Positions 4,934 through 40,730 of a stretch of DNA of 64,000 nucleotides are shown here, one piece after another. This DNA comes from Candidatus Iainarchaeum sp. (GTDB lineage: Archaea; Iainarchaeota; Iainarchaeia; Iainarchaeales; DTGL01), in the NCBI GenBank assembly GCA_026413945.1, contig JAOAJX010000004.1, forward strand, positions 1 to 64,000, written 5' to 3'. Within the stretch, counting starts at the first letter, position 1. Each line of letters begins with the position of its first letter. The position numbers were made by a program, and so were the translations under genes. The notes below the pieces were generated by a model. The model was given only the letters and a program-made list of their open reading frames with translations, did not search any database and was not told the origin of the DNA.

Positions 4934-5827
4934 TCACCCCCGTTTGAATTTATAAATTGGGGTTATCCCATTCCAATATATTTTGTGTTTGAAATTGCCT
5001 TCAAGCTCAGCATAGGGCCCCCTCCTCCCATACGAAGTTTTACCGAGACTTGGAAAAATCGACCCTTCTTTAAAATAGTACTTTGCTGGTTTCTCCATAT
5101 TGACAGTAAAGTGGCCATCTGAAACTTCAGTCCAGCCAGCATATTGTACAAGCACGTAATTGGGCCCAAAAAACTCATCTTCTTTGCTCTTCTCTAAAAA
5201 CTGTTTTAATTCATCTTTAGTTGGAGAATATAAAGCTAAGTTAATAAAGAAGTCACCATCATCTTCAATCTCATGAAATTCGAAATCTTCAAATGGTTGA
5301 GATGAAGTAGTTTTGTCACGTCCAAAGCCAAAGTATTTCATTTCAAGAAGGGCTTTTTCTATAATGCTTTTGAATTGTGGAGAATAAGAAAACCACAAGC
5401 CACTTTTTTTTGTGCTTTTAATTCTATAAGAAAAAAACAATTTTGTCTCCCCAGCCATCTTGGTAGTCCTAGGAACGCTGTTATGGGCATTTTTAATTAG
5501 AAATACATCCTCTGGTTTATCATCGAGGTATTTTTCATTAAGGCCCTCTTTGAATGCATCAACTACAAGCAGTTTTTTACTTTTGATTTTCTTATTTAAT
5601 TCATCGTTTTTATCTTTCATTAAAATTTTTGCATTAACTATTGGCAGATATATTTTATTTCCAGAAAATGGAAACATAGAGCTAACCGCAAATCTATCAT
5701 CTAATATTAGCTTTTCAGCAAGATTTGGCATTGCGTTTAACAAAGCGGCGAAAATACTTTGCGAACTCACGATTGGGTAGTCTTCGTTTACTCCAATATC
5801 TACCTTATAAAGCTTCACTATATGCAT
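4934..5827 (-). CDS. csm4: Type III-A RAMP Csm4
   Basis: SQSIFAAL, VSSMFPF, GFGRDKT, FKEGSIF; lies between csm3 and csm5. Confidence 0.82.
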   Translation of the reverse strand: MHIVKLYKVDIGVNEDYPIVSSQSIFAALLNAMPNLAEKLILDDRFAVSSMFPFSGNKIYLPIVNAKILMKDKNDELNKKIKSKKLLVVDAFKEGLNEKYLDDKPEDVFLIKNAHNSVPRTTKMAGETKLFFSYRIKSTKKSGLWFSYSPQFKSIIEKALLEMKYFGFGRDKTTSSQPFEDFEFHEIEDDGDFFINLALYSPTKDELKQFLEKSKEDEFFGPNYVLVQYAGWTEVSDGHFTVNMEKPAKYYFKEGSIFPSLGKTSYGRRGPYAELEGNFKHKIYWNGITPIYKFKRG

Positions 5828-5831
5828 AAAA

Positions 5832-6476
5832 TCACTTATTCAAAATCTCTTTCCACCCACTTTGCTCTATTTTTACTTGTCCATATCCTCGCGTACCGCA
5901 ACCACCCAGATAATCATTTTGAAGTAGTTCTAATGCTTCTGCAACTATTTCTTTATATTTTTCCTCTTTATCAAGTTCATTGTCTAGCACTTTAAGGACG
6001 AACTCGCCTTTGAAAACAGTACCTGGTAAAACCCGTTCAACAAAACGAGGATTGGCTGCCTTTCCTGTCCCCCTACTAACAGTGTTCTCTGCTTTCAGCT
6101 CCAAAAATTTATCTTCCATATATTCTTCCTCATTCTCTAAGTAAAAGTCCCTAACAATTAAAGCGCCTGTTATCTTAGAACCACCTTTACCACCAGAACA
6201 TCCAAAAGTTTGGCAAATAAGGCAATCGTCTTTTCCACAATCACAAACCCCTTCTTTGCTTATTCCTTCTTTATTATACTTGGCTTGTTCCAAAAGGGAT
6301 CTCATCTTGCCTTTTAGGCTAGAGCCCGGAATATATGGGATTTCTACTCTTTGGTTTGGCCCCCTTATTTTAGCAACTGGCAGATCGGTGTTGCCAATTT
6401 CAAAATCATCTTTGTTGCCACCTATGTGAAGACCAGTAACAACTTTTATTTTTATTTCATTTCTCAAATATTTCAT
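5832..6476 (-). CDS. csm3: Type III-A backbone RNase Csm3
   Basis: TGLHIGG, catalytic-region IGNTDLPV, PYIPGSSLKGKMRSLLE, YLGGCGTRGYG. Confidence 0.95.
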   Translation of the reverse strand: MKYLRNEIKIKVVTGLHIGGNKDDFEIGNTDLPVAKIRGPNQRVEIPYIPGSSLKGKMRSLLEQAKYNKEGISKEGVCDCGKDDCLICQTFGCSGGKGGSKITGALIVRDFYLENEEEYMEDKFLELKAENTVSRGTGKAANPRFVERVLPGTVFKGEFVLKVLDNELDKEEKYKEIVAEALELLQNDYLGGCGTRGYGQVKIEQSGWKEILNK

Positions 6477-6482
6477 ACAAAA

Positions 6483-6890
6483 TCACCCCTCACCTTTAGG
6501 ATTGAAATATTTAAAGTAGCATATTATTGCCTCATTAAACTGATCTAAAAATTCTCTCTTCTCTGGATCTTTTACAGCAAGTTCAATCAAATCAAAATAA
6601 ATTGATAGAAAGTCCTCATTTTGTATAATTCTGTTTTGGTAAGCAATTTTAGGTTTAGCTAGAACAAGACTTTTTTCGTCTTTTGCATTTTTTATGATAG
6701 AAAAGATCCTACGAAGTTGATGATATTTTATATTCCTGTTATTGGCGATATTTTTAGCTATCTCTTTAGCAGAATGATCTACAACCTCTGTGCTCAATTC
6801 ATCATTTTTTATTTTTTTAGAAAATTCAATAAGTTGCTTTGAAAAATCACTTCTTTCTTGTTCTCTCCCACTAAAATAGCTTTTATTCAT
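6483..6890 (-). CDS. csm2: Type III-A small subunit Csm2
   Basis: 135 aa helical protein; QLRRIF, KPKIAY, EAIICYFKY motifs. Confidence 0.88.
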   Translation of the reverse strand: MNKSYFSGREQERSDFSKQLIEFSKKIKNDELSTEVVDHSAKEIAKNIANNRNIKYHQLRRIFSIIKNAKDEKSLVLAKPKIAYQNRIIQNEDFLSIYFDLIELAVKDPEKREFLDQFNEAIICYFKYFNPKGEG

Positions 6891-32620: not shown

Positions 32621-35295
32621 CTGTTTGTAGAAAAGTAAGCCCTTATCTTTTCACCGTCTGCTGTACCAATCGCCATACGGTCATTTCCACCGCCTTTGCC
32701 GTTCAATGTTGCCAATACTTCCTTAAGCAACTCTGTTGCTTTTTTGTTTGATTTCTCACCGCAAAAAACAACGATGTCTTTGCCTGAGCCAAGAACAAGC
32801 GCAATATCAGGTCTCTTTGACATAACATAATTGCCTATCTCAATAAGTGTTTTCTTTTCTGTATCATCAATAAAAAGCTTAACAATAGGGCCTTTTTCTG
32901 AAATCAAAGACCTGCCAATTATAGAAGCGCTTCTCTCTGTCATCAAATCAACCTTTTTCCTAAGCTGCTTCCACTCAGAGAAAAACCTTTCAACTGCTTT
33001 TGGAAGCTCATGTGGTTGTACAGATATCTTGGCTGCGGCTTCCTCAAGTATTGCTTCTTTTTCTTGAACAGTCTTTAGGGCTTCGGGACCACAAACAAAT
33101 GTAAGGCGCTCTATGCCGTCTTGAACACTTTCGCGCTTTATTATCTTAAAGAATCCGATCTCTGAAGTTCTCAATGCATGTGTGCCCCCACATGCCTCAA
33201 CATCAACGCCGGGTATTTCTACAATCCTAAGCTCTTTACCAGGGACATAACCACCTTGGTAAAGCGTAAAGCCATATTTTTGCTCTGCCTTGTTTCTTGC
33301 CATGAAAAATGTTCTAACAGGAATGTTAGCAAGCACGAGTGCATTTACCATCTTCTCTAACTCTTTTATTTGCTCTTTAGTAATGCGTTTGTAGTGAGTC
33401 ACATCTAAATGCGCTTTATCCACATCTTTTTGTGCACCTGCTTGCCAAATGTGCATTCCTAGAAGCTTTTTACAGCATGCATTTAAAAGGTGGGTTGCTG
33501 TGTGGTGTCTCATAAGCTGCTTACGTCTTTCCATATCAATTGTAGCAGAAACAATATTTCCTATCCTAAACTTTTCTGGTTCTGAAACAGTATGTAGAGT
33601 TATTCCATTAATCTTCTCAACGCACACGACAGGCACTCCGCTTATTTTGCCCAAATCATGTGCTTGTCCACCTGAAGTGCCATAAAAAGCAGTCTGATCC
33701 AAAATGAGTTTGTTACCTTCTTTTCCGATAACTTTTGCTTTAAAGTTACTAAGCATTGGTTCTTTATAATATAGTTCTTTTGTCTTAGGATACTCTCTAG
33801 AAAGCGCTGTTTTTTGTTCGCTTGAAATTGCTTTTTCGTTTTTCTTGGCAATAAGATAATAGAAGTTTTCTGGAATCTCTATCTTCAGACCCTTCTTTGA
33901 GGCTTCTCTTTCAATTAGTTCTGGTGCAATGCCATTGCTTTCATATAGCTTTATCAGTTCTTTTTCAGTAATTATGTCACCCTTAGCGGCCTTATCAACA
34001 ATGTTGGCAATTATTTGCCCTGCCTTTGCGCGCAGCTCCTTATTTTTTTGTTCTTCCTCTGAAATTATTTCAACAACTGAACTGACACCTGCGCTCAATA
34101 AAGGATCAAGGCTTTTTAAAGCTATTGCATGTTTTTCCAAAAGACCTGGAACATCTAGCTTAAGATCATACTCTTCGTTGAATGAAAAAACACGTCTCAA
34201 CAAAATCCTTAGGTTATAGCCTCCACCCGAATTACTTGGAAGCATTCCATCAGTAATTGCATATAATAGTGCCTTAAGATGGTCAGCACAGGCATATAAC
34301 GCTTGCACAGGCCTGATTGATTCGTCAAAATCTTTTTCTTCAAGCCCTATGCTCTTAAGTATCTGAGATCTTTTTTCCCTCAGATTACCCTCTTCTATAT
34401 TTAGCGCACCGCCAAGCTTAGCATATAGAGCAAACTTCCTTGAGTCATATCTCAAGCCAGAGTCAGAAAACATCTTTTTTAGAACATCTTTGAAGACAAC
34501 ATCATAACTTGTTGGTGTTCCGTTTGTGTACCATGCCAGTCGCTCAAGGCCTGCGCCCATATCTATTACTTTTGTTTTAAGCTCTTCATAACCAGCGTTA
34601 GTCTCTCTAAATTGCATGAATACGCAATTACCAAGCTCAACTCCATTAGCAAGATATTCCATGCTTGGGCCGAAAGTGCCTCCACCTGCCCAAACATCCT
34701 CCATGAAAACAAGCTCCTGTTTTGGTACGCCTATAACCTTTGTAAGATAATTAAAGTCATGTTCCAAAGCTTCATTTTTCCAATAGAAAAGGCCTGTTTT
34801 TTTGGAATTAAAAGCGTGTTGCCCAAACATTATAAAGGCTGAATAATGTTGACCTGTTGCACCAACATTCTGAAGATCATTGAAACGCAAGCATGGTTGT
34901 GGTACAACTAAGGGATTTGCCGGCGGCTCAAGTTCACCACTAACAACATATGGCTGAAAATCAATTATTGAGGCATTAGTAAAATACAAATCATCTCGCC
35001 ATCGAGCAACCACGGGATAACGAGCAATGCTTTTATGACCATGTCTTACAAAGTAGCGTTCTATTGCACGCCATGTTTCGACATAACTATAACCTTTTGT
35101 TTTTTTTCCAATGAAGCCAAAACTTGAACAACTCGAATCAGCACATGATTTTCTCTCAGGGTTCAAACTCCAAAAAAATCGCCCGCATTTTTCACATTTT
35201 AGTCTAACGAAGCCCATCTCCTTGAGAAAAGGCACTTTGTAATGCTTTTCCCATTCTTTAGAAAATTGCTCGCGTAATTCTTTTTTATCAGCCAT
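32617..35295 (-). CDS. alaS: Alanine--tRNA ligase (archaeal type)
   Basis: RYPVVARWRDDL, DMGAGLER, HHTATH editing motif, EACGGTH, DHHA1 GKGGG. Confidence 0.96.
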   Translation of the reverse strand: MADKKELREQFSKEWEKHYKVPFLKEMGFVRLKCEKCGRFFWSLNPERKSCADSSCSSFGFIGKKTKGYSYVETWRAIERYFVRHGHKSIARYPVVARWRDDLYFTNASIIDFQPYVVSGELEPPANPLVVPQPCLRFNDLQNVGATGQHYSAFIMFGQHAFNSKKTGLFYWKNEALEHDFNYLTKVIGVPKQELVFMEDVWAGGGTFGPSMEYLANGVELGNCVFMQFRETNAGYEELKTKVIDMGAGLERLAWYTNGTPTSYDVVFKDVLKKMFSDSGLRYDSRKFALYAKLGGALNIEEGNLREKRSQILKSIGLEEKDFDESIRPVQALYACADHLKALLYAITDGMLPSNSGGGYNLRILLRRVFSFNEEYDLKLDVPGLLEKHAIALKSLDPLLSAGVSSVVEIISEEEQKNKELRAKAGQIIANIVDKAAKGDIITEKELIKLYESNGIAPELIEREASKKGLKIEIPENFYYLIAKKNEKAISSEQKTALSREYPKTKELYYKEPMLSNFKAKVIGKEGNKLILDQTAFYGTSGGQAHDLGKISGVPVVCVEKINGITLHTVSEPEKFRIGNIVSATIDMERRKQLMRHHTATHLLNACCKKLLGMHIWQAGAQKDVDKAHLDVTHYKRITKEQIKELEKMVNALVLANIPVRTFFMARNKAEQKYGFTLYQGGYVPGKELRIVEIPGVDVEACGGTHALRTSEIGFFKIIKRESVQDGIERLTFVCGPEALKTVQEKEAILEEAAAKISVQPHELPKAVERFFSEWKQLRKKVDLMTERSASIIGRSLISEKGPIVKLFIDDTEKKTLIEIGNYVMSKRPDIALVLGSGKDIVVFCGEKSNKKATELLKEVLATLNGKGGGNDRMAIGTADGEKIRAYFSTNR

Positions 35296-35357
35296 AATTA
35301 GGAATATTTACCTGCAAAATAATAAAATACTTTTTCAGAACTGCTTTTTTAATCTTT

Positions 35358-35365
35358 GTTAAAGT
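35358..35365. repeat. Left 8-bp target-site duplication GTTAAAGT
   Basis: Identical to 39173-39180; both abut the TIRs. Confidence 0.9.
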
Positions 35366-35386
35366 GGTTCTGTTAACTTAATGTTG
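35366..35386 (+). repeat. Terminal inverted repeat GGTTCTGTTAACTTAATGTTG
   Basis: Exact reverse complement of 39152-39172. Confidence 0.92.
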
Positions 35387-35426
35387 ATGAATTAAACATT
35401 AAAATTTTCATTTTATTACCCCCAAT

Positions 35427-35651
35427 TTAGTCAGAATTAACAGCTTGGAATTTGGTTGCTTTTTGTATCATACATTTCCAATTCTCAACTTCGATATCCA
35501 CTCCAGAGATTTTAGCTGGAGTATTACCATTAAGACTTTGATGAGGTCTTAAGAAGTTATAAAAGACAAACCAACCATCAAGAAATGTTTGGGCTGTTTC
35601 TTGTTTTTTCAATCCTCGCATCGGTTTAAGCCTGTCCTTAAGTGTTCCATG
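35427..35651 (-). pseudogene. DDE transposase C-terminal remnant (IS6-like)
   Basis: HGTLKDRLKPMRGLK..FLDGWFVFYNFLRPHQSLNGNTPA; frame closed by a stop just upstream; ends 40 bp from the TIR. Confidence 0.78.
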
Positions 35652-35801
35652 AAACGAATACTAGTAAGCCTTCCAGATGGGGCATGGAAATTTATCGAGA
35701 AAAAACTAAAGGGCAAACTCGGTGACAAAGAGTCAGAATTAGTTAGAAACATCGTTATCGCTTACTTGTCTGAAAAAGGCTATTTTGAAGATGAGAAATA
35801 G
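35649..35801 (+). CDS. Small ribbon-helix-helix (CopG-like) DNA-binding protein
   Basis: MKRILVSLP beta strand then ..ESELVRNIVIAYL helices; 50 aa. Confidence 0.6.
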   Translation: MKRILVSLPDGAWKFIEKKLKGKLGDKESELVRNIVIAYLSEKGYFEDEK

Positions 35802-35802
35802 C

Positions 35803-35979
35803 ATGGTTGACAAAGAGATCAAAGAGGTAAAAGAAGATATAGAAACTCTTGAGAACATGTTCTCTGCCTTAGTACACATTCTAGAAAAAAAGAAAATACT
35901 TTCTGATAAGGAACTTGACGAACAAATAAAGAGAAGAATTGATAAAGATAAGAAATTAAAGAAATTTGAAGATCTTTGA
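35803..35979 (+). CDS. Small charged coiled-coil hypothetical protein
   Basis: MVDKEIKEVKEDIETLENMF..; follows RHH stop; its own stop abuts the attC-like site (track ORF starts 35785). Confidence 0.55.
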   Translation: MVDKEIKEVKEDIETLENMFSALVHILEKKKILSDKELDEQIKRRIDKDKKLKKFEDL

Positions 35980-36120
35980 TTAACTAATTAGTTCTGAGAA
36001 GTTTGCGAAGCAAATTTCCCCCGAGCCCAATATTTCATGATTAAATTATATATTGGCGAGGGGCGACTGAACGAGCTCTGTAAGAAGCGAGTGAAGGAGT
36101 CAGAACGAGTGTTAGTAGAC
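35978..36120. other. attC-like structured recombination site
   Basis: TAAC(35981-84)-N6-GTTCTGA(35991-97)...TCAGAAC(36100-06)-N4-GTTA(36111-14); internal hairpins TTTGCGAAGCAAA and CCAATAT/ATATTGG. Confidence 0.6.
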
Positions 36121-36353
36121 CGAGTGAGATTGAAGCGTTTAGCAGAATGTCTGAGCGAGGCAAGGAGCTTCGAAGAAGCGACGAAGCGTTGCTGGCGATC
36201 ATTTGGGGCGCCGTGGTTTGCTCCAGTTCAATATAGAAGCAAATCTCGTTTAACCATAGTTCAACGAAATAGCCAGCCTCGCCTTTTATAGAGACTAAAT
36301 GAAAGCCACCTCTCACTAAAAAGTTAATAAATATTATTAGATTATCTTAACAT

Positions 36354-38153
36354 ATGAAAAAAGCATTTGTCTGGGATCCTGTGATGAGATCTTCAGCAAT
36401 AAAATACGATCCTTGTATATTATTAAATGGAAAAATATGTAAAACTAAATGTGATAATTGCAAAATTACTCTTATCGCAGATAGGTTTTTAGGTAAAGAA
36501 TTCCAGCAAGAGATACTTGGAAAAATTGGTGGGAGCAAAGGAAGATACCCGTATGTTATTATCGCCGATAGTTTAGGTTGTAATCTGCATTGTTGGTTCT
36601 GTTACGCATATAAATTTCTTACAAAAGAAAGTGCAGAAGCAAATAAATGCGACATAGCTTATGTTTCTCCTAAAGAACTTGCAGAACAATTTGGTTGCAA
36701 AATCAGAAAATTAGCAGACTTTCAAGAATTACTCAGAGTTGTTGAATCAAAGAATCTCAACGAACAGGTAAAAAAAGCGGCAATTAAACATTTACAGATG
36801 AAATTACCTTTAATGAGGATCAGATTATCGGGTGGTGAACCAACATTCTCAACTAAAGATACATTGTTTGAACCTCAAGATGAAAATCTAATCAAATCTA
36901 CAGTTATGTATTGGCTCTCTTTTTTTAAAGAATTGGATAAAATTATTGGTCTTTTAAAAAAAGATGGAAAATTAAATATTGCCAATAAAATGGATGTTAA
37001 AAATAAAGAGTGGAAAGGAGATTTACCGTTTCCTACATGTCTTGGAGAAAGAGAAGGAAGATTGAATATAAGATACGACACAAATGGTATCATATTTGGC
37101 AACAAAGAAATTACCAAGATGTTTATCGGTGGACTTTTTAAATTATTCAAACAAAATAAGCTAAATCATATATTCATAGAATTTGATTATTCTTTTAAAG
37201 GTGCGACACCTGTTGAATACGAATGGTCTCAAAGGAGAGGTTTACCAGTTGACGCTTCAAAAATCTCTTTTGATTATAAATTAAAAGAACACCCACAAAT
37301 TCCTGGTTATCTAAATATAATCAAAACTATTACTGAGCATTGCAAAAAAGATGTAGAGTTTAATAATTGTGCGGGTATTACTGTAGAAAGAGGTATAAAC
37401 CACAACAAAAGTTTTAAAACATACCTGAATTGCAAAGAATCACTTAATTGGGAAAATTTTTCTAAAAAAAGTAGAATTCGATTCTCAGTCGTAGATAATC
37501 CGATAGAAATGTTTAATTGGAGAAATTATACGCCTAAAAGCTGTTTTATTAAGAACGGTGCGAGCATCAAGGTAATATCAGGAGAAGCAGAATTTGATTT
37601 GAAAAATTGTCCGGATATGAACAAATTTTCTGAATTTGTCCAGAACCATCCAAATTGTTACTTTGTAATATACCCAGTTGAGACCAAAGTTAATCTTCAA
37701 AAAATTACAAAAATAGGAAAAATAAAACTTGATTCTTCCCAAACGACATTAATAGACATGCAGTTTTCTGGTTGGGTCTTTTCTGGTACTAAAGAAAATT
37801 GGAAAATTGCATTGGAAAAAAGAAAGTGGGGTGTTAAGGAAAAAAACCGTTCTCTTTGGCAAAAAATAAAACCTGGGGATATTGTATTATTTTATGTTAC
37901 TACCCCTATAAGTCGAATTATGGGTTTTGGAAAAGTTAAAGAAACTTCTGAAGAAAATTCCCTTTTGTGGCCAGATGAAATAAAAGAGAATAATCTAAAA
38001 TATCCACTAAGAATAATTTTTGAAGAGATGAAATGTATTGAAGATTGGGAAAATGGTGTAAAACCTTTTGGTTTAGAAATAAAACACGGCATAAATCAAG
38101 TTAACAATTATAAAACATTCGAAAAAATAGTCAATACTTTTAGAAATGAATAA
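36354..38153 (+). CDS. Radical SAM protein fused to a C-terminal EVE domain
   Basis: ADSLGCNLHCWFCY, RLSGGEPT, YDTNG; C-terminus ENWKIA..WG..IKPGDIVLFY..GFGKV..WPDE..YPLRI. Confidence 0.82.
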   Translation: MKKAFVWDPVMRSSAIKYDPCILLNGKICKTKCDNCKITLIADRFLGKEFQQEILGKIGGSKGRYPYVIIADSLGCNLHCWFCYAYKFLTKESAEANKCDIAYVSPKELAEQFGCKIRKLADFQELLRVVESKNLNEQVKKAAIKHLQMKLPLMRIRLSGGEPTFSTKDTLFEPQDENLIKSTVMYWLSFFKELDKIIGLLKKDGKLNIANKMDVKNKEWKGDLPFPTCLGEREGRLNIRYDTNGIIFGNKEITKMFIGGLFKLFKQNKLNHIFIEFDYSFKGATPVEYEWSQRRGLPVDASKISFDYKLKEHPQIPGYLNIIKTITEHCKKDVEFNNCAGITVERGINHNKSFKTYLNCKESLNWENFSKKSRIRFSVVDNPIEMFNWRNYTPKSCFIKNGASIKVISGEAEFDLKNCPDMNKFSEFVQNHPNCYFVIYPVETKVNLQKITKIGKIKLDSSQTTLIDMQFSGWVFSGTKENWKIALEKRKWGVKEKNRSLWQKIKPGDIVLFYVTTPISRIMGFGKVKETSEENSLLWPDEIKENNLKYPLRIIFEEMKCIEDWENGVKPFGLEIKHGINQVNNYKTFEKIVNTFRNE

Positions 38154-38159
38154 ACTCAT

Positions 38160-38299
38160 GGCGGCGGCTTCAATATAAATTAAATATAGCCAGCAATGTC
38201 TACTAACAACTATTAAGTGAAATAAATATTCGCTTTATAGTATGAAGAAGTATAAAAAGCGAGATTTTATATAGTCCGTCTCAATAATGTCTCAATAAT
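38160..38299. other. Cassette right boundary / attI-like and integrase promoter region
   Basis: GTCTACTAACA (38198-38208) is the reverse complement of 36110-36120; IR TCGCTTT..AAAGCGA at 38230-38262; tandem GTCTCAATAAT x2 at 38278-38299. Confidence 0.5.
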
Positions 38300-38305
38300 A
38301 AATTT

Positions 38306-39115
38306 ATGACGAACGAGAGCAAGATTTATTCTCCAGAAGAGAGGTATAAACTGATTGGCAAGCTGATTGAAGAAATAAAACTCAGAAGATATTCTTTTCA
38401 AACTGGAAAATCTTATATCTCTATTGCAAAAGACTTTCTGGCGTCAGGAAAGATACCAAGAGAATTTTTGCTGTCTTATACAAACAAAAGCAAATCTGCA
38501 ATGAGGTTTGCCTATTTTGCTTTGAAGTTCTTTCACGAGAATATTCTGAATGCTAAATTCGGGGAAAAGTTGCCGCTTGCCAGAAAATCCATGAAATTGC
38601 CGTTAGTTTTAAGCAAAGAGGAGGTAATCAAAATGATTAACGCCACAAATAATTTGAAGCATAAGCTTGTTATTATGTTTCTCTATTATGCTGGCTTGCG
38701 TCTGAATGAGGTAAGAAATCTCAAATGGGAAGAAATTGATTTTGGCAGAGAGATAATACACTTAAAAACTGCAAAAGGAGATAAGGAACGAATAGTATTT
38801 CTTAATAAAAAACTGACTTATATGCTGAAAATGTATGGAATTAATGAAGAAGGCTTGATTTTTGTTTCTCAAAAATTGGGAAAATACAACAAGAGGACAA
38901 TCCAGCAAATTGTCAAATCCTCTTCCAAGAAAGCAGAGATAAAGAAGAAAATTACACCACATACGCTGCGGCACAGCTTTGCGAATCATCTATTAGAATC
39001 TGGCGCCGATATTCGATACATTCAACATCTTTTAGGCCATAAAGATTTGAAAACAACGCAAATCTACACTCACGTTGCGAATAAGGACATAAAGAAACTT
39101 GCAAATCTGCTTTAG
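38306..39115 (+). CDS. Tyrosine recombinase/integrase with short SAM-like N-terminal domain
   Basis: GLRLNE (R), KGDKER (K), HTLRHSFA (HxxR), LLGH, TQIY; N-terminal LRRYS.QT.KSY. Confidence 0.92.
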   Translation: MTNESKIYSPEERYKLIGKLIEEIKLRRYSFQTGKSYISIAKDFLASGKIPREFLLSYTNKSKSAMRFAYFALKFFHENILNAKFGEKLPLARKSMKLPLVLSKEEVIKMINATNNLKHKLVIMFLYYAGLRLNEVRNLKWEEIDFGREIIHLKTAKGDKERIVFLNKKLTYMLKMYGINEEGLIFVSQKLGKYNKRTIQQIVKSSSKKAEIKKKITPHTLRHSFANHLLESGADIRYIQHLLGHKDLKTTQIYTHVANKDIKKLANLL

Positions 39116-39151
39116 AATTTTAGAAAACATTTACTAAAAACAAATATTGAC

Positions 39152-39172
39152 CAACATTAAGTTAACAGAACC
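39152..39172 (-). repeat. Terminal inverted repeat (right)
   Basis: CAACATTAAGTTAACAGAACC, reverse complement of 35366-35386. Confidence 0.92.
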
Positions 39173-39180
39173 GTTAAAGT
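39173..39180. repeat. Right 8-bp target-site duplication GTTAAAGT
   Basis: Identical to 35358-35365. Confidence 0.9.
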
Positions 39181-39185
39181 CTAGC

Positions 39186-39782
39186 TTAAGAAGCATATTT
39201 CAGTACTACTAAACAACACTCTTGTTCTCTAAGCAGCTCATCTTCGAGGCATTTGCACTTAAAGGAGCCACTATCCATCCATTCAGGCTTTATATCCCGA
39301 TAAAGTGTCTCTTCCAAGTATTTATAAAGGCCTGTAGCCGTTGCTCCGCAAATAACTGACACACTAACTTCTTTCTTATCTAAATTATATCTTATTAGAG
39401 AGCCATCTTCATATGCGCTCCAAGACTTTGAGGGCTTTTCCACCCTACCAAATTCTGTTTCGTCCATATAAACGCCTGGACTCAAGCATATTTGCTTAGA
39501 CTCTATTCCAACATCAGAATTACCCAAAATTGCCTGTGTTGTAATAGTAATATAGCCATCCCTCTTTGAAAAAACTATCTTGCCAGATAATGGCGTTGAC
39601 TTAGACTTGTGGGCATTGTTAAGCACTTCTGCGATTATTTTATTTGGCTCGGAAGTTGAGGGGGGTTTAATTAGACCTAAAATATACAAAAGTATTGTCA
39701 ATATGGCCAGAGCAATTATGGCCGATATAAGAAGTTGAAATGTTGAAAAGGATTGTCCCCTATAATTCATCACATCACCCAA
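39186..39782 (-). CDS. Class III signal peptide (pilin-like) protein
   Basis: RGQSFSTFQLLISAIIALAIL prepilin-type N-terminus; Cys-rich C-terminus. Confidence 0.6.
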   Translation of the reverse strand: MGDVMNYRGQSFSTFQLLISAIIALAILTILLYILGLIKPPSTSEPNKIIAEVLNNAHKSKSTPLSGKIVFSKRDGYITITTQAILGNSDVGIESKQICLSPGVYMDETEFGRVEKPSKSWSAYEDGSLIRYNLDKKEVSVSVICGATATGLYKYLEETLYRDIKPEWMDSGSFKCKCLEDELLREQECCLVVLKYAS

Positions 39783-39992
39783 AAATATTTAACAAAAATA
39801 AGTTTTTTCTTATATTTAAAGTTATCGTAATTAAATAAATTTTGGCTTTATCTTGCTTTTTCTTAACACCATAGACCAAAGCAAAAAACACCAACATTTA
39901 AAAATAAATCTTACAGCTATTTAATAGTAACTTAAATGATGAAACATTAGATTTGGATTAGAATACTAAAACAGCGCAATAATGCTTTTTAG

Positions 39993-40730
39993 GTGTTAAA
40001 AGTGGGATTAAGGCCAGGGCATTGTTATTCAAGTATAAAGCACAGGCCATATACAAGGGTAGCCATAACTGTGCATGAAAAGAATTATATAGGCACTGTG
40101 CCGCCTGTTAGAATAAGGCAATTCAACATGGGAAACCCATCAATGCCTTATACTCACATAATTGATCTTATTGCTGACGACGCTGTGCAGATAAGAGACA
40201 ACGCAATAGAAGCACTAAGGATCTCAATAAACAGATTTCTAATAAGGAATGTTGGCAAGGAAAACTATTTCATGCGCATAAGGGTCTTTCCTCATCAGAT
40301 TTTAAGAGAGCACAAGCAAGCACAAGGTGCAGGCGCAGACAGGGTTTCACAAGGTATGAGTCATGCTTTTGGCAAACCAATAGGTCGCGCTATAAGAGTA
40401 AAAAAAGGCACAATTGTTTTGAGCATCCTTGCACTTCCGCAACATGTTAACCTAATTGAAAAAACCCTAGAGAAAAGGGCCAAGTCAAAGCTGCCTTGCA
40501 GCTTAAAAGTAAAAACACACACTGATTTGAAGTCGATAGGCACATTGCCGAGGAAAGCCATAATTGAGGAAAAGATTGAAGAGGCGAAGCCAGAAGAAGA
40601 AAAGGCAGCAGAGGAAAAAGCAGCAGAGGCAACAGAAAAAATTGAGGGCAAAGAAGATAGCAAGAAGGAAGATAAAGGAGAGGCAAAGAAAAGCGAAAAA
40701 ACCTCGGAAAAAAAGCCAGAGAAAAAGTAG
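39993..40730 (+). CDS. rpl10e: 50S ribosomal protein uL16 (L10e) with Lys/Glu-rich tail
   Basis: QIRDNAIEALR, FPHQILRE, GADRVSQGMSHAFGKPIG. Confidence 0.94.
   Translation: MLKVGLRPGHCYSSIKHRPYTRVAITVHEKNYIGTVPPVRIRQFNMGNPSMPYTHIIDLIADDAVQIRDNAIEALRISINRFLIRNVGKENYFMRIRVFPHQILREHKQAQGAGADRVSQGMSHAFGKPIGRAIRVKKGTIVLSILALPQHVNLIEKTLEKRAKSKLPCSLKVKTHTDLKSIGTLPRKAIIEEKIEEAKPEEEKAAEEKAAEATEKIEGKEDSKKEDKGEAKKSEKTSEKKPEKK

Follow-up and report, generated by a model that had tools for sequence, protein, structure and literature searches.

What kind of mobile element occupies positions 35358 to 39180 of contig JAOAJX010000004.1 of Candidatus Iainarchaeum sp. was the question addressed in an analysis of the first 64,000 nt of this contig, here called the window. 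The segment begins and ends with the same 8 bp, has inverted repeats immediately inside them, and carries a transposase remnant near its left end and a tyrosine recombinase gene near its right end. The original prediction, made from the letters alone, described it as an IS6-like transposon that had mobilised an integrase-cassette module, effectively a mobile integron-like unit. The whole was found to be very probably best explained as a non-autonomous deletion derivative of a passenger-carrying transposon of the IS6 family of insertion sequences (IS) from DPANN archaea. Such a combination is unusual, since IS6 elements normally carry the transposase alone, whereas the passengers here include an Xer-like recombinase, and the host is an archaeon with a tiny genome. 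Related loci and genomes are referred to by L and G numbers, respectively, where they have to be told apart.

Boundaries of the element and empty sites in relatives

The terminal inverted repeats were perfect over 21 bp, GGTTCTGTTAACTTAATGTTG at nt 35366–35386 and its reverse complement CAACATTAAGTTAACAGAACC at nt 39152–39172, and the repeat finder extended the arms to 27 nt at 93%, that is, nt 35366–35392 on the plus strand for the transposase-proximal repeat (IRR) and nt 39146–39172 on the minus strand for the recombinase-proximal repeat (IRL). They enclosed 3,807 bp and were bordered by a perfect 8-bp duplication, GTTAAAGT, read directly at nt 35358–35365 and 39173–39180. The coordinates and sequences of the original prediction were thereby reproduced, and all of the contents it had described were located, namely a transposase tail, a ribbon-helix-helix (RHH)-like gene, a small open reading frame (ORF), a radical-SAM/EVE gene and a tyrosine recombinase gene ending 36 bp before the right repeat. 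When up to 3 mismatches were tolerated, the 21-mer occurred twice in the window, while none of 100 dinucleotide-preserving shuffles gave two or more matches; across all 21 contigs of the assembly (948,649 bases; 92% complete) it occurred at the same two places only, and a reversed control pattern gave none. The GC content was 27–34% within the element versus 36–45% in the flanks, with one island of 47–48% at about nt 36000–36300. The left neighbour was alaS, encoding alanyl-tRNA synthetase (tRNA-synt_2c, 304 bits), the insertion lying 63 bp upstream of its start codon; for the right neighbour, the label "pilin-like" given earlier was supported by no family search.

In two of six genomes of the same genus (G002 and G004), 31–32 bp on a single contig separated the region upstream of alaS from the gene on the right, the flanks sharing ~80% identity with the window and the spacer containing a single copy of GTTACAAA, related to the duplication; these are empty-site alleles of the kind that the original prediction had proposed to look for. 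A third genome (G006) likewise had no element, with ~270 bp between alaS and the sequence further to the right. Apart from three exceptions, the element interior was unmatched in 30 relatives, the exceptions being a decayed relic of an end plus tail on another G002 contig, a piece of the sequence upstream of the recombinase gene in G019, and weak matches between the recombinase and the Xer genes native to these genomes. A further sequence came from run X1, labelled a hot springs metagenome, which holds 90% of the sampled words and is probably the source sample rather than an independent one. One 759-nt X1 contig joined position 35357 directly to position 39173, with 8 letters shared and 0 differences over 528 nt of right flank; it has the appearance expected of an empty-site allele and may represent one from the same population. 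Depth in X1 derives from contigs and was not used for allele shares.

Single ends without an element are common in metagenome contigs: of the 15 loci recovered there in a scan for the exact 21-mer, 11 had just one end and neither a transposase nor a recombinase in the vicinity. That two such unrelated solo ends should flank ordinary chromosomal or island genes by chance is nevertheless a practically negligible explanation here, since the flanking 8-mers are identical, the 3,807 bp are exactly what is absent at the empty site of the sister genomes, the genes are arranged as in the related elements L003, L010 and L027, and the base composition inside differs from that outside. Thus, the duplication, the empty sites and the full-length relative described below indicate that the insertion is real and recent, and that it brought passengers with it, as had been proposed.

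Relationship to the IS6 family

The transposase remnant, located by tblastn on the minus strand at nt 35427–35654, comprised residues 211–285 and the stop codon and was without all three DDE residues. An ORF of 64 aa there has the C-terminal part of an integrase-core domain, and the tail matched rve_3 with 27.3 bits (cut-off 26.5). The 74-residue tail was 88% identical (tblastn) to residues 211–284 of the transposase of L003 and 89% identical to P0001, a 245-aa "transposase-like protein" possessing PF13610, the IS240/IS6 DDE domain (3 hits among 5 candidates). When six exact peptides of P0001 were used to scan genomes, one per species, 11 loci were obtained. L003, from a Woesearchaeota genome, was a 3,223-bp element with both ends identical to the window 21-mer and its own 8-bp duplication, CAGTTTAG; it contained an intact 285-aa transposase, the same two small genes as the window element, and a different cargo consisting of three secreted or membrane proteins. 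The L003 transposase matched PF13610 with 89.2 bits (cut-off 27) and the IS6 family transposase model NF033587 with 154.4 bits (cut-off 125), and possessed an N-terminal zinc-binding domain (NF050000). The assignment to IS6, originally made from the ends and the 8-bp duplications, was thus borne out by a transposase that passes the family models, and L003, in which the same ends accompany a full-length DDE transposase, is a copy such as a search with the terminal repeat had been suggested to reveal.

IS6 elements are reported to make 8-bp repeats, to have ends of the form GG...cTGTt and to form cointegrates whose resolution needs homologous recombination (Varani et al. 2021, PMC7986276). The window ends showed short near-perfect repeats (21/21), a GG tip and a CTGTT motif, while the "caaa" motif named in the text of that review was not present in them; the 8-bp duplications were GTTAAAGT in the window, CAGTTTAG in L003 and CAGATTCA in G218. 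Thus, the clade resembles IS6 members such as IS26, IS257 and the archaeal ISH/ISC774-type elements in its transposase, its short perfect ends and its duplication. It differs from them in organisation. The norm is a length of ~800 bp, and the text of the review names one member with a passenger gene, ISDsp3 (PMC7986276). This simple organisation, a single gene in ~700–900 bp, was violated by the 3,807 bp of the window element, by L003, by L028 (5,590 bp) and by relatives in Bathyarchaeia (2.7–3.6 kb), the clade having two conserved companion genes and several passengers inside its ends. Another difference is the N-terminal zinc-binding domain, which according to the review text has been reported mainly in Clostridia (PMC7986276).

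L028 shared the 21-mer ends but had a transposase only 38% identical and no duplication, and carried an exonuclease gene and five other ORFs. The Bathyarchaeia relatives (L004:4817–7549, L006:5214–8830 and L007:5439–8864) encoded transposases ~52% identical, with both companion genes downstream of the transposase gene; their ends were GATACTGCTAACTTATTTGTC, with the consensus GATACTG(C/T)(T/A)AACTTAT(T/C)TGTC, and all three were flanked by direct repeats of 9 bp, not 8 bp, which is a further difference from IS6. Every complete element of the clade that could be delimited, in DPANN archaea as well as Bathyarchaeia, carried further genes (2.7–5.6 kb). Among viral contigs, no match to the element ends was found, and the only recombinase retrieved was 33% identical. 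Judged from these sequences, the window element belongs to the IS6 family, and it is a cargo-carrying deletion derivative within a previously undescribed archaeal clade of IS6-family transposons.

Deletion of the transposase gene and mobility

Alignment of the window element with L003 by blastn gave two blocks, nt 35366–35653 (the end and the transposase tail) and nt 35649–35946 (the two small genes), which overlapped by the pentamer ATGAA; this 5-nt microhomology at nt 35649–35653 marks the deletion junction. Missing from the window were 762 bp of L003 (positions 5750–6511), corresponding to the divergent promoter region and codons 1–210. The lost segment includes the motifs HIDET, MTDG and VVER, which we take to hold the DDE residues (positions D110, D169 and E210), so that the remnant has none of the catalytic residues. 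Although the ATG of the RHH-like gene is retained, this gene now adjoins antisense transposase DNA and has thus lost its native promoter. As read from its sequence, the window copy is a set of ends and passengers without a functional transposase, which is the criterion of a mobile insertion cassette (MIC).

No related transposase was found elsewhere in this genome (E ≤ 1e-8; 92%-complete assembly). Transposase matches were present in 18 of 215 genomes of the phylum, and none exceeded 41% identity except the tail in the window itself and the relic in G002. The element had been predicted to depend on a transposase acting in trans; that it cannot move alone was supported, whereas no helper was found in this genome, where the copy would in practice be immobile.

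The 762-bp deletion probably followed the insertion. In the alternative order, the transposase was lost before the insertion and a true mobile insertion cassette was moved in trans. This order is possible though doubtful. In its favour, all other recombinase-type copies are also truncated, one of them (G218, comprising L112 and L011) keeps the matching 8-bp flank at both ends, a 138-bp derivative in L113, resembling a miniature inverted-repeat transposable element (MITE), has a 7/8 duplication, and other related copies are present in the source metagenome (depth summed to 38–67 at the ends versus ~10 in the interior). On the other hand, the breakpoint at residue 211 was unique to the window among nine truncated copies, no helper transposase above the 41% mentioned was found in this genome or the 215 of the phylum, and a simple deletion in place between the microhomologies explains everything.

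Four other, independent truncated copies of the transposase gene (L008:~1567, L010:~5985, L011:~4097 and L031:~3668) started within ~35 nt of the same internal methionine, at residue ~165 (MTDGLWAYEK...), with different upstream DNA in each. This shared start could mean that a C-terminal fragment of 120 aa is selected for, mark a hot spot of deletion, or be an effect of ascertainment, as the copies were found via C-terminal peptides or the end repeat. The MITE-like derivative (L113:7913–8050, in G219:C2) consisted of a recombinase-type IRL and an IRR flanked by CCTTAAAT and CCTTAAAG, and its internal breakpoint lay within ~2 nt of the outer edge of the palindrome described below, as placed in the closely related L112.

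Conserved companion genes

Two small genes follow the transposase remnant on the plus strand. The first (nt 35649–35801) encodes a 50-aa protein that was 92–96% identical in L003 and L009 and 51–53% in four Bathyarchaeia elements; the second (nt 35803–35979) encodes a charged coiled-coil protein of 58 aa, for which tblastn gave identities of 78% in L003, 71% in L009, 64% in L012, 70% in L027 and 41–49% in Bathyarchaeia. Both accompany the transposase gene in L003, L009 and, with the order rearranged, the four Bathyarchaeia elements, in which the transposases are ~52% identical. They are thus core genes of the clade and not cargo, contrary to the original prediction, which had counted them among the mobilised passengers.

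The AlphaFold2 model of the 50-aa protein was beta-alpha-alpha with a pLDDT of 73, and the gene probably encodes an RHH-like regulator of the transposase clade. No RHH family match to it was found in the Pfam, NCBIfam or PDB profiles, the PDB profile matches being spurious leucine-rich-repeat hits, a weak Z-alpha (E 0.03–1) and MazE6 (E 1.3). The 58-aa protein had no family match. A reading of the two small ORFs as a toxin-antitoxin pair was rejected, there being no family support for it.

The tyrosine recombinase and its candidate palindromic site

The recombinase gene (nt 38306–39115, plus strand) encodes a 269-aa Xer-like protein with the catalytic motifs present, which matched Phage_integrase with 146.9 bits and XerA_Arch with 196.2 bits, below the cut-off of 220; the separate chromosomal XerA of this genome (G000:C11:138763–139536) scored 277.4 bits. 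Relatives at E ≤ 1e-40 were present in 127 of the 215 phylum genomes, all with 34–44% identity except in three places with 58–81%. In all five loci that keep the 3' end of the gene (the window, L010, L027, L069 and L112), the recombinase adjoined the IRL in the same orientation, and it was intact in three. The recombinases of L069 (in G074) and L112 (in G218) were intact and 81% and 85% identical, respectively, the former next to a degenerate IRL; that of L010 was 66% identical, broken by stops and likewise next to a degenerate IRL; and in L027, a 1,145-bp wreck, the C-terminal 41 residues remained, with 95% identity. L013, L023 and L115 had no more than N-terminal or internal fragments. In G218, the 8 bases outside the IRL of L112 (contig 11) were the same as those outside the IRR of L011 (contig 8), CAGATTCA, so that a single element, at least 9.3 kb long, appears to have its two ends on these contigs. 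The ratio of nonsynonymous to synonymous substitution rates (dN/dS) between the window and L112 was 0.07 (dS ~1.07, other pairs being saturated), which indicates that the enzyme was kept functional while travelling in these elements. Thus, the sequences indicate that the recombinase is a maintained, Xer-like part of one sublineage and is under purifying selection, and the idea that an integrase was picked up as a module at this locus gave way to that of a fixed, end-adjacent component.

An imperfect palindrome, CTATTAAGTGA-AATAAATAT-TCGCTTTATAG, was observed at nt 38210–38240 and is a candidate binding or recombination site of the recombinase. It was present with up to 4 mismatches in five loci (the window, L010, L023, L069 and L112), which share, ~65 nt upstream of the start codon, CTATTAAGCGA-N9-TCGCTTTATAG followed by AAAAGCGAGATTTTATATAG. 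The latter motif, which we infer to be an archaeal BRE/TATA element, was invariant in the five-locus alignment and in the window is followed by a tandem GTCTCAATAAT x2, together occupying nt 38255–38299 on the plus strand directly upstream of the recombinase start. Mean pairwise identity was 0.88 over the first 20 nt of the palindrome, 0.57 over the preceding 20 nt and 0.26–0.36 further upstream; similarity therefore stops ~8 nt outside the palindrome, and the DNA beyond differs in each locus. At L070 (in G031), where the recombinase is more distant (58% identical) and no IS ends are nearby, a different, perfect palindrome with 12-bp arms, CTATTTCACGAA-N5-TTCGTGAAATAG, was observed in the same place.

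This arrangement, a site upstream of a recombinase gene with different DNA beyond it (the window has the radical-SAM/EVE gene there, L010 a restriction-modification system, L112 a membrane protein and L013 a HIT protein), recalls an integron, in which the recombinase would capture cassettes at an attI-like palindrome and the IS6 ends would merely mobilise the platform; NCBIfam, moreover, gives its XerA model the description "tyrosine recombinase/integron integrase". Such a unit is very improbable, however. The integron-integrase models TIGR02249 and NF011946 gave 176.7 and 114.4 bits, below their cut-offs of 265 and 435, and matched in two separate stretches. Among 28 sources, no second copy of the palindrome (up to 8 mismatches of 31) was found in any element, half-site matches with a single mismatch were scattered, and no attC-like second site or half-site bounded any cargo. 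The cargo genes occur in both orientations, as a single cargo unit per element and not as an array. The "integrase-cassette module" and "mobile integron-like unit" of the original prediction thus found no support.

The reading favoured here, which we hold to be about equally likely to be right or wrong, is that recombinase and palindrome form a simple-site resolution module. It is suggested by the small Xer-like enzyme, the one symmetric site per copy beside its gene, and a transposase family that yields cointegrates. The parental element would have had the order IRL, Xer-like recombinase gene with palindrome, variable cargo, GC-rich element, coiled-coil gene, RHH-like gene, divergent transposase gene and IRR, its transposase comprising zinc-finger, helix-turn-helix and DDE parts. 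A DDE transposase of this type inserted the element 63 bp upstream of alaS, making the 8-bp duplication, and a deletion of 762 bp between two ATGAA pentamers, probably later, removed the transposase promoter and codons 1–210 and left the element immobile. A recombinase encoded by the element itself, acting on the single site of each copy, would allow cointegrates to be resolved without the homologous recombination by the host that is otherwise required, and exchange between the palindromes of different copies would account for the change of cargo directly beyond the palindrome.

A rather unlikely alternative is that recombinase, site and GC-rich element are an independent integrative or plasmid-maintenance module that rides in the passenger slot and has no role in the transposon. 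Recombinases 58–59% identical do occur without IS ends in G031 and G037; the one in G031 is accompanied by a palindrome and has an RNA-like element of the GC-patch type 1.4 kb away; copies with a full transposase (L003 and L026) are without a recombinase; and the other passengers are typical plasmid or defence-island genes. Yet the position and orientation at the IRL were the same in 5 of 5 loci, purifying selection acted inside the element across hosts of different DPANN lineages, no duplicated att-like sequence was seen at the flanks, and a small Xer-like enzyme with a single simple site suits resolution better than integration.

Several points weigh against the explanation by a deleted transposon with its own resolution module. 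The palindrome overlaps promoter-like sequence and could be a mere operator. The occurrence of recombinase, palindrome and GC patch together without IS ends, at L070, fits the independent module too. No copy with both a full transposase and a recombinase was found in the six-peptide genome scan, the exact-21-mer metagenome scan or the 215 phylum genomes. The transposase was truncated in 5 of 5 recombinase-type copies whose IRR side is known (the window, L010, L011/L112, L013 and L027), in each at a different point, and the full-transposase copies L003 and L026 imply that the recombinase is dispensable for transposition in the clade. The X1 contig resembling an empty site extends over no more than 22 (+8 shared) letters to the left of the junction and was flagged unreliable. 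Finally, the RHH label came from predicted secondary structure alone, and the PDB profile search with this protein gave no RHH hit below E = 1.

Passenger genes

The passenger of the window element is a gene for a 599-aa radical-SAM/EVE protein (nt 36354–38153, plus strand), as judged from Pfam, homologues and the AlphaFold2 model. Pfam EVE matched with 25.2 bits and Radical_SAM weakly; the cysteines of the motif C76-x3-C80-x2-C83 were invariant in 15 homologues. The model had a pLDDT of 83.5, and its C-terminal domain matched EVE/PUA-like folds (2p5d, 2hd9, YTH/ASCH). Foldseek with the whole model retrieved the EVE domain only, with no close solved structure for the catalytic radical-SAM half, and a search of the Atlas gave weak leads only (≤0.82), to phage radical-SAM clusters. 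A weak match to the viperin model (E 6e-4) was confined to the region of the radical-SAM motif. Nineteen homologous proteins were found, including one from Archaeoglobus neptunius (62% identity) and one from Aenigmatarchaeota (69%); the occurrence of this rare family in archaea as distant as these and DPANN suggests horizontal transfer.

In related elements, the same slot contained a type II restriction enzyme and methyltransferase in L010 (REase_II, E 1.4e-10; MTase_II, E 3.9e-77), an AbiU/AIPR protein in L011 (AbiU, E 5e-34) and a HIT protein in L013. With a restriction-modification system, an Abi-like gene and others, the cargo slot appears to hold largely defence-type genes, and by analogy a role of the window cargo in nucleic-acid modification or defence is plausible.

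Comparison with known systems

Transporter IS (tIS) and mobile insertion cassettes, for example MIC231 of Bacillus cereus, have passenger genes enclosed by the two ends of one IS. With ends and passengers and no working transposase, the window copy fits the definition of a MIC; these terms were defined on bacterial IS families, whereas here the host belongs to DPANN and the element combines a cargo slot with a conserved recombinase module. Tn4430 and Tn5401 of the Tn3 family encode TnpI, a tyrosine recombinase with an internal resolution site, and Tn3 elements have ends of 38 bp and duplications of 5 bp. The elements described here share with Tn4430 and Tn5401 the features of a replicative DDE transposon with internal passengers, a small tyrosine recombinase and one site per copy, as well as, in layout alone, a palindromic site and an additional repeated motif directly upstream of the recombinase gene; the window element differs from Tn3 in its IS6 transposase, 21-bp ends and 8-bp duplication. 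As to XerA and XerC-XerD, the recombinase has XerA as its best family match, a similar size and no arm-binding domain, but stays below the XerA cut-off in a genome with a separate true XerA, such as 127 of the 215 phylum genomes have at 34–44% identity to the element's enzyme. A mobile integron, too, has a tyrosine recombinase, a site upstream of its gene, variable genes beside the site and a location on a transposon; the differences are that no attC-bounded cassettes and no array were observed and that the recombinase is not of the IntI type.

The Discussion of a 2019 survey states that passenger-carrying DNA transposons and mobile integrons were not detected in archaea (PMC6563490), and in a 2026 survey of archaeal IS the word "passenger" occurs 0 times (PMC13343696). 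A literature search gave no description of this clade, and the supplementary tables and figures of the IS6 review (PMC7986276) might list further members with passengers. A wider picture can be put forward tentatively. In it, DPANN archaea and Bathyarchaeia would have IS6 "unit transposons" with internal, often defence-related, cargo, and one sublineage would have Xer-like cointegrate resolution with a res-like palindrome exchanging cargo modules, a convergent archaeal counterpart of the Tn3 organisation; most copies of this sublineage, not that of the window, would also carry an undescribed structured RNA of ~200 nt. If true, genes for defence and modification would spread horizontally between ultra-small archaea (Woesearchaeota, Pacearchaeota, Aenigmatarchaeota and Micrarchaeota-like hosts) by means of this clade, which would also be a natural experiment in the recruitment of a site-specific recombinase by an IS6 element.

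The GC-rich patch and an RNA-like element of related copies

Between the coiled-coil gene and the passenger gene, the window has a patch of ~250 nt (nt 36040–36290), recognised by composition (47–48% GC versus ~30% around it), flanked by GGCGAGG/CCTCGCC and with ORFs on both strands. It occupies the position of an RNA-like element in related elements. No relative of the patch was found in 215 genomes, and its folding was no better than that of shuffles (z -0.9 and -1.2); a relationship to the RNA-like family was tried and rejected, as neither blastn, nhmmer nor covariance model R1 gave a match. Rfam gave nothing on nt 34500–40500 at E ≤ 1 and tRNAs only on six related loci.

Related elements share a GC-rich (35–50% GC) element of ~200 nt with UUCG-type hairpins, which adjoins the coiled-coil gene or, after deletions, the truncated transposase gene. 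Copies were located at L008:1372–1578, L010:5685–5902, L027:2635–2848, L094:1400–1635(-), L093:228–433 and L022:1–164, and also at L011:3887–4022, L009:101–195, L112:2528–2687, L023:6681–6790(-), L036:2186–2401(-) and L070:1–125(-). The covariance model detected 15 copies in 29 sources, none in the window. The 11-bp closing helix was 90.5% paired in an alignment fitted to the model, 6 of the 11 pairs showing compensatory changes; its covariation score was reached by 0 of 500 shuffles, and slid controls were at most 46% paired. The element had no Rfam match and was found by BLAST in only 5 of the 215 phylum genomes. It looks like an undescribed structured RNA.

Further copies and solo ends

On two metagenome contigs, at L025:5803–5898 and L035:8259–8351, four 21-nt end repeats were arranged head to tail with a 25-bp period (GGTTCTGTTAACTTAATGTTGATTG x4), with no transposase, recombinase or companion gene nearby. 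L034:1564–2789 had a solo end repeat beside a VapC-type PIN gene (60.9 bits) with an upstream small ORF, followed by a thermosome gene. A thermosome gene is also the left neighbour of the L010 element, which may indicate a recurrent target region or be a coincidence. The related copies in X1, with the summed depths given above, were several diverged copies of the 3' half of the recombinase gene (window 38427–39136) and of the end regions. Forms with internal deletions were also seen in X1, joining position 38490 to 39059 (7 shared letters) and 37960 to 39105. These diverged copies suggest that the habitat holds a population of such elements.

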